DNA of 64,000 nucleotides from a virus. The stretch's first letter is position 1. The number at the start of each line of letters is the position of its first letter. A model generated the notes under the pieces. The model saw nothing but the letters and a program-made list of their open reading frames with translations, was not told the DNA's origin and did not search any database. The translations under genes and the position numbers were made by a program. The stretch spans positions 10,939 through 74,938 of the IMG/VR virus record IMGVR_UViG_3300017742_004322. The stretch is one strand, 5' to 3'. This document shows positions 10,683-47,336 of this stretch, piece after piece.

Positions 10683-11138
10683 TTAATTTTCAAAAACACC
10701 AATATATTCTAAAGCATCCATAAAATCACTTTCAGGATAATATTTTATAGTAGTCATATCCATTTTAAATTCATAATCTTTACCTTTAGCTTTAAATGAT
10801 TCTTTCTCTTCTTTAGGCATAGGAACTGCTTTTACAGCGGACCACATCCACTTTTCAGCACTTTGACCCTCAGCAAATACCATTCCCTTATTTGGGATAT
10901 TTACAGTATTGGGCATCCAAATTAAACCTGTTTTTTCATCTTCACCTGATATTTCTTTATAAAGTTTAGGTAAAAGAGCAAATTGTTCTTCAAAAAATTG
11001 TTCATCTTTTTTCATTAATGAATTTGTAATGAAACCACAACCATAACACATATAGTTTTTAATCTCATTATTTACTTCTTGTACATAGCATGCGTCACTT
11101 CCACATCTATCACATATTGTTAAATTATCTACACTCAT
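10683..11138 (-). CDS. Zinc-ribbon hypothetical protein
   Basis: CDRC...CYGCG. Confidence 0.6.
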   Translation of the reverse strand: MSVDNLTICDRCGSDACYVQEVNNEIKNYMCYGCGFITNSLMKKDEQFFEEQFALLPKLYKEISGEDEKTGLIWMPNTVNIPNKGMVFAEGQSAEKWMWSAVKAVPMPKEEKESFKAKGKDYEFKMDMTTIKYYPESDFMDALEYIGVFEN

Positions 11139-41623: not shown

Positions 41624-41654
41624 AAATATACGAAGACCCTTTCGGGTCTCCAAA
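41624..41654 (-). promoter_or_regulatory. Phage promoter with GAAA-tetraloop hairpin as spacer
   Basis: TTTGG-AGACCC GAAA GGGTC-TTCG-TATATTT. Confidence 0.85.
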
Positions 41655-41899: not shown

Positions 41900-43012
41900 T
41901 TAATATGTTATAGTTAAATCTTCATCTTCTAGATTTTTATAATCATCATGGAATTTTTTTTCTATTCGTCTTCTCCTAAATTCACCTAAAGCAATTTTAT
42001 TTTCTAAGTTATCCATTTTAGTTTTAACATATTCTTCTTCAGTAAGGGTAGGTAGGGTATGTTTTTTTAATAAACCATCCCATCCAGGGATTAAAGCAGG
42101 GTTTATAGGAAAGGAAAGAATTTTTTCTTTTAGGGTTGGTTTTTTAATTATTTCTTCATCATTATCTTCATCTGTAAGTTTTTCCCCATAAATATTTTCT
42201 TTTGGATTTAATTTTTCAAAAGCAAAATTAGCAGCAATTACAAGAGCAATGGCTAAAGGATCAAATACAAATATAATAGTTAAAAGTAACCAATTAATAA
42301 TTTTATCCATTGGTATACCCGTTAATCCTGAGAGATATTTTAAGGGGCCTAATTCACCTGCTATGTCATTATTAGTTTTTACTTCTACTATCTCAGTTTC
42401 ATATTTAAATAATTGTTCATTTAAATTATCTACTTTAGTATTAATTTCAGTTTGACGAGCTATAGCTTGGTCTAATTGTCTTTCTAATGCCCTACGAGTT
42501 GAACTAGAAGTTGTGTTGATAATCTGACCAGTTTCCTTGTCTTTATACTGGATTTTATTGTTAGATAAGCCAGACCTCAAATCAGATACTGCCCCGTTAA
42601 TGGTGCTTTTTTCCGCGTTGTATACCGCTAATTGTTCCCTAATATTATCTCGTTTAGTTTCAATTAAAGCAATTTGAGAATCTATACTTCCTGCTTTAGC
42701 TGCTGTTTCTTGATAGGCAGCTGAAAGGAAACCATAAATACCCATACTAGTAATTAATACTAGAACAAAAGCAGCTATTGTTAAATAGTATTTTAATAAT
42801 TTAGGGATTGATTTACGATACTGGTAGAGTAGGGATGCAATGACTAATTTAGCTACTTCTAATGAAGTAGCCATAATTATTACAGCTAAAGTAGCCCCAG
42901 CAAAAAGTTTGCTAAGACCGCTAACTGAATAGAAAGCGGCCGAAGCAGAAACTGACAGGGCAGAGGATGCGATTATAAAAGGAAATATCCTTTTTTGGAT
43001 TTTTTTCCACAT
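41900..43012 (-). CDS. Membrane protein: 3 N-terminal TM, long coiled coil, further TM (DUF4407-like architecture)
   Basis: Hydrophobic segments, LEVAKL, GIYGFLS, GELGPL, IFVFDPLA. Confidence 0.7.
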   Translation of the reverse strand: MWKKIQKRIFPFIIASSALSVSASAAFYSVSGLSKLFAGATLAVIIMATSLEVAKLVIASLLYQYRKSIPKLLKYYLTIAAFVLVLITSMGIYGFLSAAYQETAAKAGSIDSQIALIETKRDNIREQLAVYNAEKSTINGAVSDLRSGLSNNKIQYKDKETGQIINTTSSSTRRALERQLDQAIARQTEINTKVDNLNEQLFKYETEIVEVKTNNDIAGELGPLKYLSGLTGIPMDKIINWLLLTIIFVFDPLAIALVIAANFAFEKLNPKENIYGEKLTDEDNDEEIIKKPTLKEKILSFPINPALIPGWDGLLKKHTLPTLTEEEYVKTKMDNLENKIALGEFRRRRIEKKFHDDYKNLEDEDLTITY

Positions 43013-43018
43013 GGGGGT

Positions 43019-43438
43019 TTACTTTCTAAAGCCCTTGTGGTTATCTATGCGATCTAATAATTTATTTAATTCTTCAGCTTTTATAAATCCAGCCATAGAT
43101 GCATTTTTAAGGGCACTGATTATTTGTAATATAATGAACGGTATGATAACTGCTTCGCTAAGCCAAGCTGTTCCTGTAAAACCTTTTTCTACCATTAATA
43201 CTACTGTTAAAAACATAACCCAACCTATAGCACGTTGTAATACACGAACTGCTTTTCTTGTTTGAAAACCTTCACGTTTAATTCCAGCTACTATACCAAA
43301 AAAACCATCTATAAAGACAACAGCTATTAAGCCAAGATATTGTTCAGCGTTACTCATAGTAAGCTCCATAAAATAAGAGCATAAAAAAGATAGTGTCAAA
43401 ATAGGGACGGTTAAGAAAGTTATAGTGGAAGTTTTCAT
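43019..43438 (-). CDS. Phage holin family 4-like protein
   Basis: Multiple TM, D.FFG...G, IISALKNA; coupled to endolysin. Confidence 0.7.
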   Translation of the reverse strand: MKTSTITFLTVPILTLSFLCSYFMELTMSNAEQYLGLIAVVFIDGFFGIVAGIKREGFQTRKAVRVLQRAIGWVMFLTVVLMVEKGFTGTAWLSEAVIIPFIILQIISALKNASMAGFIKAEELNKLLDRIDNHKGFRK

Positions 43439-43905
43439 ATTGACCAGTTTTCGTAATAAGTCTTTCCTTTGGAATTTCTTTTAGCTGATAGGATTTGGCC
43501 TCTTTGTTCTCCATCACTATTATATGAAACATGAACCCAATCAGGTCTTTCGTTAGTTCCAAATTCCCAGATTAATTGGTCAAATGGTAAATTTTCTCTA
43601 ATATAATGAAATATTTCTTCATTTTCTGGGCCATTTCGATAATCCATATCAATATCAATAGCTTCACCTTTTGAATGTTGTGAAGTCTTGGAGCCACCAA
43701 TTGCTTCATTTAAAGCTTGGCTTCTATATCCTGAAGAAATGAAAATAGGTTTAGCGAAGTGTTCTCTAATTGGTTGAAATATTTTTTCAGCTAATAATTT
43801 AGCTGCCTCTAGATGTTTGCCTTTAGGAGTATTATCTAAACCTCTACGTTTTGCAGTTGAAGATCTAGTAAATTCACCTAAAGATAAGTTTTTAGATAAT
43901 TTCAT
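43435..43905 (-). CDS. Peptidase M15A Zn-dependent endolysin (start ATG 43905)
   Basis: LSKNLSLGEF, SSGYR, SQHSKGEAID, WVHVS. Confidence 0.88.
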   Translation of the reverse strand: MKLSKNLSLGEFTRSSTAKRRGLDNTPKGKHLEAAKLLAEKIFQPIREHFAKPIFISSGYRSQALNEAIGGSKTSQHSKGEAIDIDMDYRNGPENEEIFHYIRENLPFDQLIWEFGTNERPDWVHVSYNSDGEQRGQILSAKRNSKGKTYYENWSI

Positions 43906-43912
43906 AAGTTTA

Positions 43913-43987
43913 CTAATTACAATTACAGCATGAACATCCACAGGTAAAGTGACAATTACATACTATACAATTACAGCTATTTTTCAT
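43913..43987 (-). CDS. Metallothionein-like 24-aa Cys-rich peptide (not in track)
   Basis: MKNSCNCIVCNCHFTCGCSCCNCN, 9 Cys + 1 His; ATGA overlap with upstream stop, stop 7 nt before endolysin ATG. Confidence 0.75.
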   Translation of the reverse strand: MKNSCNCIVCNCHFTCGCSCCNCN

Positions 43988-44232
43988 TTTTTAGCAAATT
44001 TTTCTAATCCTGCGATACCAAATGAACCTAATGTGATAAATACAAATGAGTTATAAATGAATTCTTGAATTACTAAGTCTTTACCAAAGTAACCTGTTAC
44101 TAAGTCTACTATAGCAAATATTACCATTACAGCAAACGCCATAAATCCAATAACATTCTTTTCATTTACGTTATTATCATCTTTAAAAATATCTTTAAAG
44201 GCCATGATTTTATTTTTTATATTATTAGGCAT
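43984..44232 (-). CDS. Small 2-TM membrane protein (holin/antiholin-like)
   Basis: Two TM segments, basic C-terminus; start may be MAFKD. Confidence 0.6.
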   Translation of the reverse strand: MPNNIKNKIMAFKDIFKDDNNVNEKNVIGFMAFAVMVIFAIVDLVTGYFGKDLVIQEFIYNSFVFITLGSFGIAGLEKFAKK

Positions 44233-44273
44233 ATAAAAACCATTAAGTATAACAAATTATATGCTTATACATA

Positions 44274-44813
44274 TTATTTATTTTTATAGAAAAACTCTAA
44301 AATTTCTTTTTCTAACACAGTATCCATAACAAAATTATCGCCATATTGAATACTTGTAAAAGTTCCATCATTTTCATTAACAATTTCAATAATATAATCT
44401 ATTTCATCATATATTAAACTATAACTTTCACTTTTTTTAACTAAATTAATGCTTTTGTTTTTATCTTCTTGAATCCCAGTAAATGTAATTTCTTTATTAC
44501 TTAAATCCGGAACATTAGTAAGCTTAGTTACACACTGGGCATAATTTGAGTGAAGAGTATCAATTAGATATGTATTATCTAATTCACTCATTAAATATAA
44601 TCTTTGTTTTGAGTCTAATCCACCAGCTTTGAAATCACCAGTATATTGCACCATTGGTAATGATAATAAAACTAATTTTAATTCCGGGGCAAGCTTATTA
44701 AAATTTACTACAGAAGTTATTTGATTACTATTATTAATATCTCTATTAAAAGGTAAAGATAGAAGATCATAAAAAGTCTTTGTGCTAAGATTATCTAATA
44801 TCTGAGGGCTCAT
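44274..44813 (-). CDS. Hypothetical protein in two-component operon
   Basis: ORF track; 1 nt from upstream stop. Confidence 0.6.
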   Translation of the reverse strand: MSPQILDNLSTKTFYDLLSLPFNRDINNSNQITSVVNFNKLAPELKLVLLSLPMVQYTGDFKAGGLDSKQRLYLMSELDNTYLIDTLHSNYAQCVTKLTNVPDLSNKEITFTGIQEDKNKSINLVKKSESYSLIYDEIDYIIEIVNENDGTFTSIQYGDNFVMDTVLEKEILEFFYKNK

Positions 44814-44814
44814 T

Positions 44815-45387
44815 TTATTCTTTTTCTGTTGCGTATTTAACTCCCATAATTGTGCCTACAATAGAAAATGCATTTGTAAGTAAAATACCAAACATATTAC
44901 TCCAGGTTGATCCTATAATTTGAGTATCTGCTCCTGAAGTTAGTGCGATAGCATACATAATTGTAGTAATTATACCCACACCAACTATTACTACTAAAGC
45001 AACTTTCACAATTGTACTAATTAGTTCAAATTGGGTTTTCTTTTGCATTACTTCTAAATCTTCTAATGCTTTATCCTTACCCTTTTCTGCTTTTTCTCTT
45101 AATTGATTTGATGATTCTAATGCTACTTGAAGCTCCTTCATTAGAGTATCATTTTCTTTTTGTTTTTCAACAAGTTCTCCATTTTGTTTTTGAACTTGTT
45201 TCGTAACCTCTAAACGTTTTTTACGTCTAGTAGTATCTTTTTCTTTACAGAGTTCAAGATATTTCTCAAATTCATTATCACCTTTTGGGGCTTTAAGAAG
45301 TTTAAGGAAATTTCCTTCTACATAGATTTTTCTTTTTTTAGCAACCTCTAGTAGAACATTTCTTACATGCTCTGTTATTTCTATCAT
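44815..45387 (-). CDS. Coiled-coil protein with two C-terminal TM helices
   Basis: Heptad-rich region then VALVVIVGVGII... and MFGILLTNAFSIVGTIMG. Confidence 0.75.
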   Translation of the reverse strand: MIEITEHVRNVLLEVAKKRKIYVEGNFLKLLKAPKGDNEFEKYLELCKEKDTTRRKKRLEVTKQVQKQNGELVEKQKENDTLMKELQVALESSNQLREKAEKGKDKALEDLEVMQKKTQFELISTIVKVALVVIVGVGIITTIMYAIALTSGADTQIIGSTWSNMFGILLTNAFSIVGTIMGVKYATEKE

Positions 45388-45824
45388 TACCTATAAACTT
45401 TAAATTCAGCTGATCTATCTTTATAAGCATCATAATCTGTCATAAATTCTTCTAATCGAGGTTCAATATCATCTGATTTAATAATCCAAAATTGAGCTCC
45501 AGCGGCTTTTGCTTTTTCAATTTCTTGATTGTCATCTGATGATGATATAATTCCTATTACACATCCATTACCATACTCAAAATTAATTTTACGAATTAAC
45601 TCAATTCCATCAAAAGATGAACCAAGTATATTTAAATCAACAAATACACATTCGGGGCGTTCTTCATTAGGGTCATCGGGCCACCATTCTTTAAATTTAA
45701 GATTAGCTTCATCTGAAGAATTAAGGGCTTCTAGAGATAAAGTTATATCTAAGATGCTACAGGCATCTTCAAATACCAAGTGGAATAGATCCTCATCGTC
45801 TATAAGTAATATAGAATTTATCAT
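45387..45824 (-). CDS. Stand-alone response regulator (receiver domain only)
   Basis: LLIDDE, FVDLN (phospho-Asp), IISSS, IIK. Confidence 0.9.
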   Translation of the reverse strand: MINSILLIDDEDLFHLVFEDACSILDITLSLEALNSSDEANLKFKEWWPDDPNEERPECVFVDLNILGSSFDGIELIRKINFEYGNGCVIGIISSSDDNQEIEKAKAAGAQFWIIKSDDIEPRLEEFMTDYDAYKDRSAEFKVYR

Positions 45825-47059
45825 GTTGTTTTAATTTTTATTTTTAATATAGTTCCTGTTTTTGTTTTTTCAGAGGTTATAGCAAAACCATGTTCTTTTA
45901 ATATTGCGATACATATATTTAATCCTAACCCTGATCCTCCTTCTTTTTGCCCTGCTTTTCTAGTATATGGTTTTGATAATTGAAGGAATTCTTCATTAGT
46001 CATTCCTCTTCCATTATCTTCTATACATAAAGTAGAATCATTACCCATATAAATAGATACTAATTTAGTAGAACTATCATTATATTTTAACCCATTTCTA
46101 ATTAAATTGTCTATTGCTGTACAAAATAAAGGTTCATTTACATTTACTACAGGTAAACTTTTAATTTTAACTTGCTTAATATAAGATGTAGCAGATAAAT
46201 AATTATTTAGTATAACTGCTAAATTATGATCTTCCATATCTAATTGAGCATCTTCTTTTACTAAGTTAGTAAATTCTTTAACTCCAGCATAAACTCTTTG
46301 TGTATGTTTTAAACCTTCTTCTAACATTTTTAAAGGAGCTTCTATTTTTAATTCTTTAATTTTTTCAGCAGAAACTCTTCTTTTTAAAGAAGTTAACCCC
46401 CTAGGCATATATGTGTTAATTCCACTATGCATATCGTGTCTTAAAATTTTAGCAGCATGTTCTAAATAAGAATTTTTCTGGTTGACTTCAATTTCAGCAT
46501 TGTGTTGTATAGTTGTATCTGTTGCTATTTTTAAAACTTTATTATACCCACCCTTAGGATCTTTTATTGGAGTATAATTACCAAATAACCAACGAGAAGT
46601 ACCATCCCTAGCAATTCTTTCAAATTCACCACTAATAGTTTCACCTCTTTGTAGTCTTTTCCAAAATTCATGATAGTCTAAACTATTGCTATACTCTTTA
46701 GGAACCATATATCTATGGTTTTTGTTTTTTAATTCTTTTTCTGTATAACCCATAGTAGTACAAAAGTTGCTATTATGAGATAAAATTTTCCCTTCCATAT
46801 TAAGTACTACTACTATATTTGATTTATCAATTGCATTTAATTGTAAATCAATATTTGCTTCTTTTAATTTAGAAGTACGATTAAAATCCCAAATAATATA
46901 AGAAAAGAAAGGAATTAGGGCAATTATACATCCATACCCAAATTCAGCTAAAAAATAACTAAACTCAAATACTCTAAATACAAGAAAAGTTTCTAATATA
47001 AAGAATATAAGTATAATTCCAACTGATATGCCTAAACATATTTTTGTAGCTTTATTCAT
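45821..47059 (-). CDS. Membrane PAS-domain sensor histidine kinase
   Basis: 2 TM; PAS (N..F...GY...EL, FW..L..G); H-box RHDMH; N-box NLIRNGLKY; G1 EDNGRG; G2 GSGLGL. Confidence 0.92.
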   Translation of the reverse strand: MNKATKICLGISVGIILIFFILETFLVFRVFEFSYFLAEFGYGCIIALIPFFSYIIWDFNRTSKLKEANIDLQLNAIDKSNIVVVLNMEGKILSHNSNFCTTMGYTEKELKNKNHRYMVPKEYSNSLDYHEFWKRLQRGETISGEFERIARDGTSRWLFGNYTPIKDPKGGYNKVLKIATDTTIQHNAEIEVNQKNSYLEHAAKILRHDMHSGINTYMPRGLTSLKRRVSAEKIKELKIEAPLKMLEEGLKHTQRVYAGVKEFTNLVKEDAQLDMEDHNLAVILNNYLSATSYIKQVKIKSLPVVNVNEPLFCTAIDNLIRNGLKYNDSSTKLVSIYMGNDSTLCIEDNGRGMTNEEFLQLSKPYTRKAGQKEGGSGLGLNICIAILKEHGFAITSEKTKTGTILKIKIKTT

Positions 47060-47071
47060 AGTTATAAATAT

Positions 47072-47100
47072 AAAAAAAGGAACGCTAAATTGCGTTCCTT
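47072..47100 (-). terminator. Intrinsic terminator after nrdA operon, upstream of histidine kinase
   Basis: AAGGAACGC-AATTTA-GCGTTCCTT followed by T-run. Confidence 0.85.
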
Positions 47101-47123
47101 CTTGGCATTTTAAATAAAGTAAT

Positions 47124-47336
47124 TTACTTTTTTATTAGCTTAGATACCTTTAATTTTACAATATCCCAATTACGAGTTGCAAATACACCAAAAGCAAACC
47201 CAGCATAAATTTTGTAGCCAAAAGCCCATAAGATAAGACCGGCAATTAAACCTACTACACCTTCAATTCCGTTAGCTATAACCCAATCTTTAATAGTTAT
47301 AAAGATTTTTTTGATAAAGTTTAATACTTTTTTCAT
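47124..47336 (-). CDS. Small membrane protein
   Basis: Hydrophobic GVVGLIAGLILWAFG/YAGFAFG. Confidence 0.6.
   Translation of the reverse strand: MKKVLNFIKKIFITIKDWVIANGIEGVVGLIAGLILWAFGYKIYAGFAFGVFATRNWDIVKLKVSKLIKK

Follow-up and report, generated by a model that had tools for sequence, protein, structure and literature searches.

We analysed a stretch of 64,000 nucleotides from an uncultured marine phage (hereafter the window; IMG/VR virus record IMGVR_UViG_3300017742_004322, positions 10,939 to 74,938) that carries, at the head of a phage lysis cassette, the genes for a membrane-bound sensor histidine kinase, a stand-alone CheY-like receiver, a coiled-coil membrane protein ending in a two-helix transmembrane (TM) hairpin, termed CCTM190, and a soluble protein, orf179 (Table 1). 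Kinase, receiver and CCTM190 are referred to here as the trio. We read this module, with slightly better than even confidence, as a phage signalling system whose output is a virus-only membrane hairpin of the lysis cassette, that is, as a form of sensor-controlled lysis regulation. The CCTM190 hairpin is very probably an output controlled by cytoplasmic sensors, as the first-pass annotation of this DNA had proposed for the coiled-coil membrane protein, because the same hairpin occurs fused to sensor domains in phages without kinase or receiver and because these fusions lie within lysis cassettes, its usual home. The kinase–receiver pair is, on the sequence evidence, an alternative way to feed the same hairpin.

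The fused forms were obtained in a search restricted to longer proteins, which returned 808 proteins of 334–380 residues with either PAS-PAS or a GAF domain placed ahead of a stalk and hairpin of the CCTM190 type. Compared with CCTM190 residues 105–190 they showed 69–79% identity among the 120 listed, and their PAS domains were 38–40% identical to that of the kinase, with the equivalents of His115 and Arg148 kept. Fusions without kinase or receiver were present at 91 viral loci. The receiver was absent from three fusion genomes of 95–100% completeness (120–160 kb), while the same search recovered it in two trio-bearing records. Three flanking genes per side were available for 47 distinct fusions. 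In 44 of these an endolysin (peptidoglycan hydrolase) or a holin lay at most three genes from the fused gene, in 42 a lysis gene adjoined it directly, and in 41 tm82 (the two-TM protein of the window's cassette) or c39 was found at most three genes away. The endolysins near the fusions belonged to five types, M15, Amidase_2 with PG_binding_1, GH24 lysozyme, GH19 and c40 (the c40 domain also occurring with PG_binding_1), which argues for a function in lysis and not for one shared ancestral neighbour. Four loci (L159, L205, L220 and L222) share the backbone of the window and show the order ribonucleotide reductase (RNR) beta, RNR alpha, fusion/tm82, endolysin or holin, which in L159 and L205 continues to CC370, the coiled-coil membrane protein of the window's cassette. 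From this shared order it follows that the one-protein fusion sits at the position held by the trio in the window.

It is the trio loci that leave room for a different assignment. Among the 36 modules with four same-strand genes on either side, a lysis gene (holin or Pfam-supported hydrolase) lay at most four genes away in 16, or in 19 with looser markers, both lower bounds since same-strand open reading frames (ORFs) alone were scored. About half of the trio loci thus stand away from recognised lysis genes, the operons of some relatives hold extra membrane proteins (c8, and a proteorhodopsin-like gene in four contigs), and the hairpin is outside the known holin and antiholin families, all of which would suit a module that governs another membrane process, such as superinfection exclusion, membrane potential or ion balance, or envelope remodelling, with its proximity to lysis genes reflecting a clustering habit of membrane and late genes. 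We regard this as rather unlikely, given that 44 of the 47 fused forms are at most three genes from an endolysin or holin and that, in contigs sharing the backbone of the window, a fusion stands in for the trio at the head of the lysis genes.

Several further points weigh against lysis regulation. In two large clades the trio adjoins baseplate (gp25-like) or other structural genes, and two contigs binned into metagenome-assembled genomes (MAGs) that were scanned, L140 and L142, have no recognisable lysis neighbour. CCTM190 gave no Pfam and no PHROG match to holin or antiholin families, and the hairpin, tried as a paralogue of tm82, reached an hhalign probability of 1%, that is, no homology. 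Membrane-protein genes may group with lysis genes from expression timing alone. The fetched fused forms were 82–91% identical to one query, and the locus counts are not independent events because the loci are related to each other. Finally, no cultured phage is known to carry the module, which is known here from sequence alone. The first-pass annotation had tied the trio to lysis genes and named a lack of such linkage in relatives as evidence to the contrary; with 16–19 of 36 trio loci beside lysis genes the linkage is partial, and the lack of linkage named there applies to some of the relatives, among them the two clades with structural genes.

Where the trio does stand beside lysis genes, it does so in at least nine different arrangements, upstream or downstream. 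These include a holin immediately upstream of the kinase; a holin with an amidase or M15 endolysin upstream; tm82 and a holin downstream; DUF5675 together with tm82 on the upstream side and, on the other, a spanin-like lipoprotein carrying a C-terminal TM helix; and an amidase straight after a GAF-PAS version of the kinase.

Intramembrane-sensing kinases, such as those of LiaFSR and BceRS, depend on accessory membrane proteins. The kinase of the window is similar to them in having two TM helices (residues 9–27 and 38–56) with a connecting loop of about 10 residues and hence almost no periplasmic loop, and CCTM190 could accordingly be an input, an accessory controlling the kinase as LiaF does with LiaS, with the receiver acting on a host protein (motility, metabolism or a regulator). 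A conserved host target would fit the receiver being the most conserved gene of the set across very different GC contents (mean column identity 87% over 29 diverse relatives). We consider this arrangement distinctly unlikely, as it is weakened by the hairpin being fused to PAS or GAF domains in phages without kinase and receiver; moreover, the TM region is among the least conserved parts of the kinase, and the kinase owns a cytoplasmic PAS sensor.

Turning to the components of the proposed signalling route to the hairpin, the kinase keeps its catalytic motifs. Pfam recognised PAS_3 (E = 9e-12) and HATPase_c (PF02518; E = 3e-13, 50.6 bits against a cut-off of 26.4), and residues 196–400, comprising the dimerization and histidine phosphotransfer (DHp) and the catalytic and ATP-binding (CA) domains, aligned to EnvZ, HprS, 8F71, CpxA and QseC. 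Among 76 kinase relatives the H-box RHDMHSGINTY with His208 was invariant, and the N box (317–327), G1 (347–353, DNGRG) and G2 (375–380, GSGLGL) were invariant or nearly so. Pfam HisKA was not reached at E 0.01, though an H-box DHp helix is present, and this helix together with a HATPase_c domain bearing N, G1 and G2 boxes places the protein with the class I (HisKA-type) kinases.

The cytoplasmic PAS domain of the kinase matched 11 solved chains at E < 0.01, nine of which are flavin sensors by name (MmoS, Aer, phototropin LOVs, blue-light receptors) and two are titled merely 'histidine kinase'. The best solved relatives were PAS-A of MmoS (3EWK; E = 3e-15), Aer (8DIK; 8e-7) and LOV domains (1e-5), and they also included YtvA. 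The reference residues of the flavin pocket (Aer T18, G28, H53, N85 and R115, and those of MmoS) were taken from a published description, in which a flavin-contacting Asn (Aer N85, MmoS N164, the LOV Asn) lies at flavin N3/O4 and Aer R115 lies over flavin N5 (PMC9668731). S80, G90 and H115 of the phage PAS are equivalent to Aer T18, G28 and H53 and were conserved in 74–76 of the 76 relatives, whereas Aer N85 is replaced by R148 (in 69 of 76 relatives) and Aer R115 by L176 (67 of 76), so that two of the five positions are missing and both replacements are themselves conserved. The redox or energy sensing that the first-pass annotation had read from this domain thus stands as a resemblance, because of the two conserved replacements at flavin contacts, and flavin binding by the kinase PAS cannot be assumed. 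Since some relatives use GAF or GAF plus PAS, the input differs between lineages.

Single-domain response regulators (CheY, DivK, Spo0F, CpdR) act by protein contact, and the receiver of the window shares with them the lack of an output domain, as judged by Pfam. It passed Response_reg (PF00072) narrowly, with 31.2 bits against a cut-off of 30.2 for residues 5–117 of 145. The residues of the phospho-chemistry are complete, D9, D10, D63, S94–96 and K116 being invariant in 29 diverse relatives, and Trp113 occupies the position of the CheY switch tyrosine. Its best solved relative was 3ILH, a response regulator of Cytophaga hutchinsonii. In contrast to the CheA–CheY pair, the phage kinase is a membrane-bound HisKA-type PAS kinase and the presumed partner of the receiver is a new membrane protein; unlike systems of the CheA–CheY type, the phage operon is also without chemotaxis or phosphorelay components. 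A predicted complex of the receiver with CCTM190 residues 1–120 yielded scores of 0.27 and 0.25, under the mark, which counts neither for nor against their contact.

The model of CCTM190 (predicted local distance difference test, pLDDT, 81) comprised a small N-terminal domain, a single helix of about 110 residues (38–151) and the TM hairpin. The second hairpin helix (TM2, W162 to K184) is nearly invariant and contains polar and small residues, a conservation beyond what a mere anchor would need. Relatives of the protein numbered 7,046 at 90% clustering and none of them had a Pfam domain; the only names given at source were 'hypothetical protein' and an automatically assigned 'Fe2+ transport system protein B', and a cluster look-up of the NCBI-sourced relatives yielded no names. 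The atlas clusters of CCTM190 were 100% viral. A profile search of 1.84 billion representatives with the hairpin family recovered its own family only, 113 representatives (50% clustering) with the hairpin always C-terminal. No fusion of receiver and hairpin was found among those of at least 200 residues, PAS and GAF being the only partners seen; weak partial matches with a glycosyltransferase or RNA-polymerase domain were left out of account. The product of orf179 was never seen alongside fused forms, and its model (pLDDT 79) had no Foldseek match at E < 0.001 and a best VIA-align Z of 4.8.

Kinases of this kind were encoded by more than 578 viral contigs and receivers by more than 300, and the order kinase–receiver–CCTM190 was identical in the 86 distinct viral modules fetched. 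For the comparison of neighbourhoods the ORFs of 139 loci were clustered. Contigs with the trio span 30–67% GC, and the module thus crosses hosts of widely differing base composition. Searches of 50,697 GenBank phage records with kinase, receiver and CCTM190 gave no match except one PAS-only match. In a set of one genome per species, covering 185,579 species, four contigs (L140, L141, L142 and L143) contained the trio, each of them whole and in the same order, at 39–67% GC and all in MAGs of four different phyla, the bins being those of Bdellovibrionota, Verrucomicrobia, Gemmatimonadota and Alphaproteobacteria. The two that were scanned (L140 and L142) contained phage genes, among them one for a virion structural protein (phrog_1645) and members of further phage families, and the four are probably phage contigs caught in bins. 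From the surveys of viral contigs and MAGs the module is therefore known from phage contigs only.

This distribution bears on the question of whether the trio is a host-derived passenger, a moron made up of a normal bacterial two-component system and serving no role specific to the phage. In favour of this, the domains of kinase and receiver belong to common bacterial types, and the closest solved receiver is bacterial, from Cytophaga hutchinsonii. Such an origin as mere cargo is nevertheless highly improbable, since the trio is missing from the species genomes bar the four MAG-binned contigs, whereas its kinase and hairpin recur in viral sequences in the numbers given above, and all four module genes are under purifying selection, with ratios of nonsynonymous to synonymous substitution rates (dN/dS) of 0.05–0.19 for kinase, receiver, CCTM190 and orf179. 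The genes are tightly coupled: kinase and receiver meet in an ATGA overlap, receiver and CCTM190 in a TAATG overlap, and CCTM190 and orf179 are separated by a 1-nt spacer. The intact, phage-borne and tightly coupled module described by the first-pass annotation is hereby confirmed.

With sensor-controlled lysis as the favoured reading, the following course of events may be envisaged. The kinase, anchored by its two TM helices with nearly no periplasmic loop, would sense some intracellular cue through its cytoplasmic PAS domain, autophosphorylate at His208 and hand this phosphate on to the stand-alone receiver at Asp63. The phosphorylated receiver would then bind the cytoplasmic N-terminal domain or the stalk of CCTM190 and thereby alter the membrane association of its invariant two-TM hairpin, which in turn could advance or delay hole formation by tm82 and/or the Phage_holin_4_1 holin, whether by partnering them in the manner of an antiholin or by forming a gated pore. 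In this way the hairpin would affect the timing of lysis. In phages with PAS-hairpin or GAF-hairpin fusions the same job would be done by one protein. Phosphotransfer, receiver–CCTM190 contact, action on the holin and the direction of the timing effect are steps that we infer.

We compared this scheme with described systems. T4 lysis inhibition employs the holin T and the antiholins RI, a periplasmic sensor, and RIII, which is cytoplasmic (PMC11413866, PMC8385771). It is alike in that a phage sensor tunes the lysis time of a holin post-translationally and in that the regulators are accessory to the holin–endolysin pair. It differs in acting by direct protein binding with no phosphorelay and in reading a periplasmic superinfection signal, as opposed to the cytoplasmic PAS or GAF here, and no sequence relation to CCTM190, which lacks a PHROG or Pfam match, was found. 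In Staphylococcus and relatives, the two-component system LytSR with LrgAB/CidAB is tied to holin- and antiholin-like proteins and to membrane state (PMC5717393, PMC2996381). That system is cellular, with a multi-TM LytS and with LytR as a DNA-binding LytTR regulator acting on transcription, whereas the phage module has a two-TM PAS kinase, a receiver-only regulator and a virus-only hairpin; by Pfam it contains neither a LytS nor a LytTR domain. T4 lysis inhibition and LytSR–LrgAB are the closest analogues in function, and neither shares sequence or architecture with the phage module. Pelagiphages carry histidine kinases beside curli (type VIII secretion system, T8SS) genes (PMC9599517). They likewise are uncultured marine phages with a kinase adjoining envelope-directed genes, but the neighbours there are CsgF/G/A, FecR and adenylate cyclase, no receiver–hairpin trio is described and the kinases are not in a holin–endolysin cassette. 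In a full-text literature search no phage-encoded two-component system linked with lysis was found described, in line with the first-pass annotation, to which no characterised lytic-phage system of this kind was known. The module thus combines well-known signalling parts in a wiring that is new and confined to phages.

Lysis timing determines burst size and phage fitness, and is known to be controlled by holin clocks, by antiholin isoforms and, in T4, by the response to superinfection. If the reading given here is true, it would add a new principle, in which the virus gauges a variable inside the cell and sets the moment of bursting itself. A wider proposition, which we hold tentatively and at somewhat less than even confidence, is that thousands of uncultured aquatic phages, with hosts of very different GC content, share an undescribed class of lysis control, in which a virus-only hairpin is gated by cytoplasmic sensors either directly (PAS- or GAF-hairpin) or via a kinase–receiver phosphorelay, so that the burst time is chosen from the internal state of the host; in a few of these phages a proteorhodopsin-like gene may add an input of light or membrane energy. 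The module is abundant in seawater viromes of many studies and could therefore shape oceanic viral production. It would also make a simple test system, with three or four small genes and a lysis cassette, and the one-protein PAS-hairpin is simpler still.

In the window every gene of the signalling and lysis region lies on the minus strand, in the order ribonucleotide reductase genes, a 70-residue membrane protein, a terminator, kinase, receiver, CCTM190 and orf179, followed after a 41-nt gap by tm82, a 24-residue ORF, the M15 endolysin, a holin and CC370. The strong terminator ahead of the kinase and the set of genes downstream of the module, both listed by the first-pass annotation, were found as described. 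Together with the next strong terminator on the minus strand, the one ahead of the kinase brackets the region, and the signalling genes and the lysis cassette therefore form one terminator-bounded block. Seawater metatranscriptome contigs from four studies were 100% identical to parts of the kinase, the receiver, orf179 and the lysis genes, and one of them covers the receiver/CCTM190 junction; these contigs neither prove a single transcript nor exclude DNA carry-over, and stretches without coverage carry no information.

Table 1 Features of the signalling module, the lysis cassette and their flanks in the window
Feature	Position	Strand	Description
Small membrane protein, 70 aa (tm70)	47124..47336	minus	upstream of the terminator that precedes the kinase
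Intrinsic-terminator-like hairpin	47074..47103	minus	12-bp stem with 5 G-C pairs, T-run; ends 14 nt ahead of the kinase ATG
Sensor histidine kinase, 412 aa	45821..47059	minus	2 TM 46892-47035; PAS 46490-46828; His208 46436-46438; HATPase_c 45830-46474
Receiver, CheY-like, 145 aa	45387..45824	minus	Asp63 phospho-acceptor at 45636-45638
CCTM190, 190 aa	44815..45387	minus	N-terminal domain 45238-45387; coiled-coil stalk 45034-45237; 2-TM hairpin 44824-45033
orf179, soluble alpha/beta protein	44274..44813	minus	present in about half of trio loci
tm82, 82 aa, 2-TM	43984..44232	minus	lysis-cassette protein
24-aa ORF, 9 Cys	43913..43987	minus	starts on ATGA overlap; between tm82 and endolysin
Endolysin, Peptidase_M15_3	43435..43905	minus	PF08291 E 8e-22, 77.9 bits; phrog_894 endolysin E 7e-40
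Holin, Phage_holin_4_1	43019..43438	minus	PF05105 34.6 bits; phrog_199
CC370, multi-TM coiled-coil protein	41900..43012	minus	conserved with the lysis cluster
Strong terminator, next on minus strand	41631..41652	minus	9-bp stem

Within the cassette, tm82 is a candidate class II holin or antiholin. The likely true start of the endolysin is the ATG at 43905, giving a protein of 156 residues, and the start of the holin overlaps the endolysin stop (ATGA). CC370 begins with three to four TM helices, which a coiled coil separates from further TM helices; it accompanies the lysis cluster in the window, in the cultured phage immuto and in many relatives, and may be the spanin equivalent of Bacteroidota-type phages. 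The 24-residue ORF was found in four close relatives (L003, L004, L005 and L008), where 9 of 9 cysteines were kept and 7–8 of the 15 other residues were changed, while the flanking genes were 94–100% identical; more distant relatives showed no copy of this ORF.

The window, with a GC content of about 30%, comes from an IMG/VR viral contig that is 74.9 kb long and about 51% complete. Among cultured phages, Flavobacterium phage immuto (160 kb) is nearest to it, with a DNA identity of 71% between the lysis regions. Phage immuto contains the holin, the endolysin and matches to tm82 (tblastn, 55% identity, about L001:11669, within gp192) and CC370 (tblastn, 49% identity, overlapping gp185), and has neither kinase nor receiver. 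A sigma-70 promoter scan of the window gave a result no better than shuffles. The motif TATATTTA occurs 21 times on the minus strand of the window; ten copies lie in the non-coding 3.6%, and eight are placed 5–26 nt ahead of a start codon. The positions include 54452, 41484, 15847, 5087 and 2471, and also 39622, 27157 and 47072. Five copies have a common extended form, TTTG(G), about 19 nt and TTCGTATATTTA, which resembles the Bacteroidota −33/−7 promoter. One copy of TATATTTA stands directly after the terminator that precedes the kinase, and this kinase-proximal copy is without the upstream half of the extended form. Based on the nearest isolate, the −33/−7-like motif and the Cytophaga structure as the best solved relative of the receiver, the host of the window phage is probably a member of the Bacteroidota.

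Some variation was observed around and within the trio. In relatives the kinase nearly always has a small TM gene (c5 or c16) ahead of it, and in many cases this gene overlaps the kinase start. The c5 proteins have 62–66 residues and a weak, sub-threshold likeness to a YgaP-like TM domain, and c16 has about 51 residues; examples of c5/c16 are L036:2150-2341 (+) and L030:7849-8004 (+). In the window the unrelated tm70 occupies the same place, with the terminator between it and the kinase. In some clades the trio adjoins proteins resembling unimolecular spanins, which start with a lipoprotein-type signal and have a TM helix at the C terminus (L040:4012-4437 (+), L135:4309-4698 (+), L075:10251-10835 (+)); they had no family match. 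At L051:5410-5907 (+) and in 35 further loci, c8 is inserted between receiver and hairpin gene; this protein of 165 residues has three TM helices, ends in a coiled coil and likewise had no family match.

A microbial rhodopsin of 192–193 residues lies inside the module, between receiver or c8 and the hairpin gene, in only four viral contigs of IMG/VR (L118:6529-7107 (+), L045:10170-10748, L048:10165-10743 and L063:7547-8122), in three of which an amidase endolysin is directly upstream of the kinase. It matched Pfam Bac_rhodopsin (E = 4e-12), has green proteorhodopsin as its best solved relative and contains the retinal Lys motif; helix C reads D-T-Q as against D-T-E in proteorhodopsin, the carboxylic proton donor being absent. 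A variant kinase of 592–707 residues with GAF and PAS domains was observed at L227:5770-7548 (+) and in L228–L234, followed by the receiver and a 225-residue hairpin protein. An Amidase_2-type endolysin comes right after the hairpin gene of this variant in L227–L229 and lies upstream on the opposite strand in L231.

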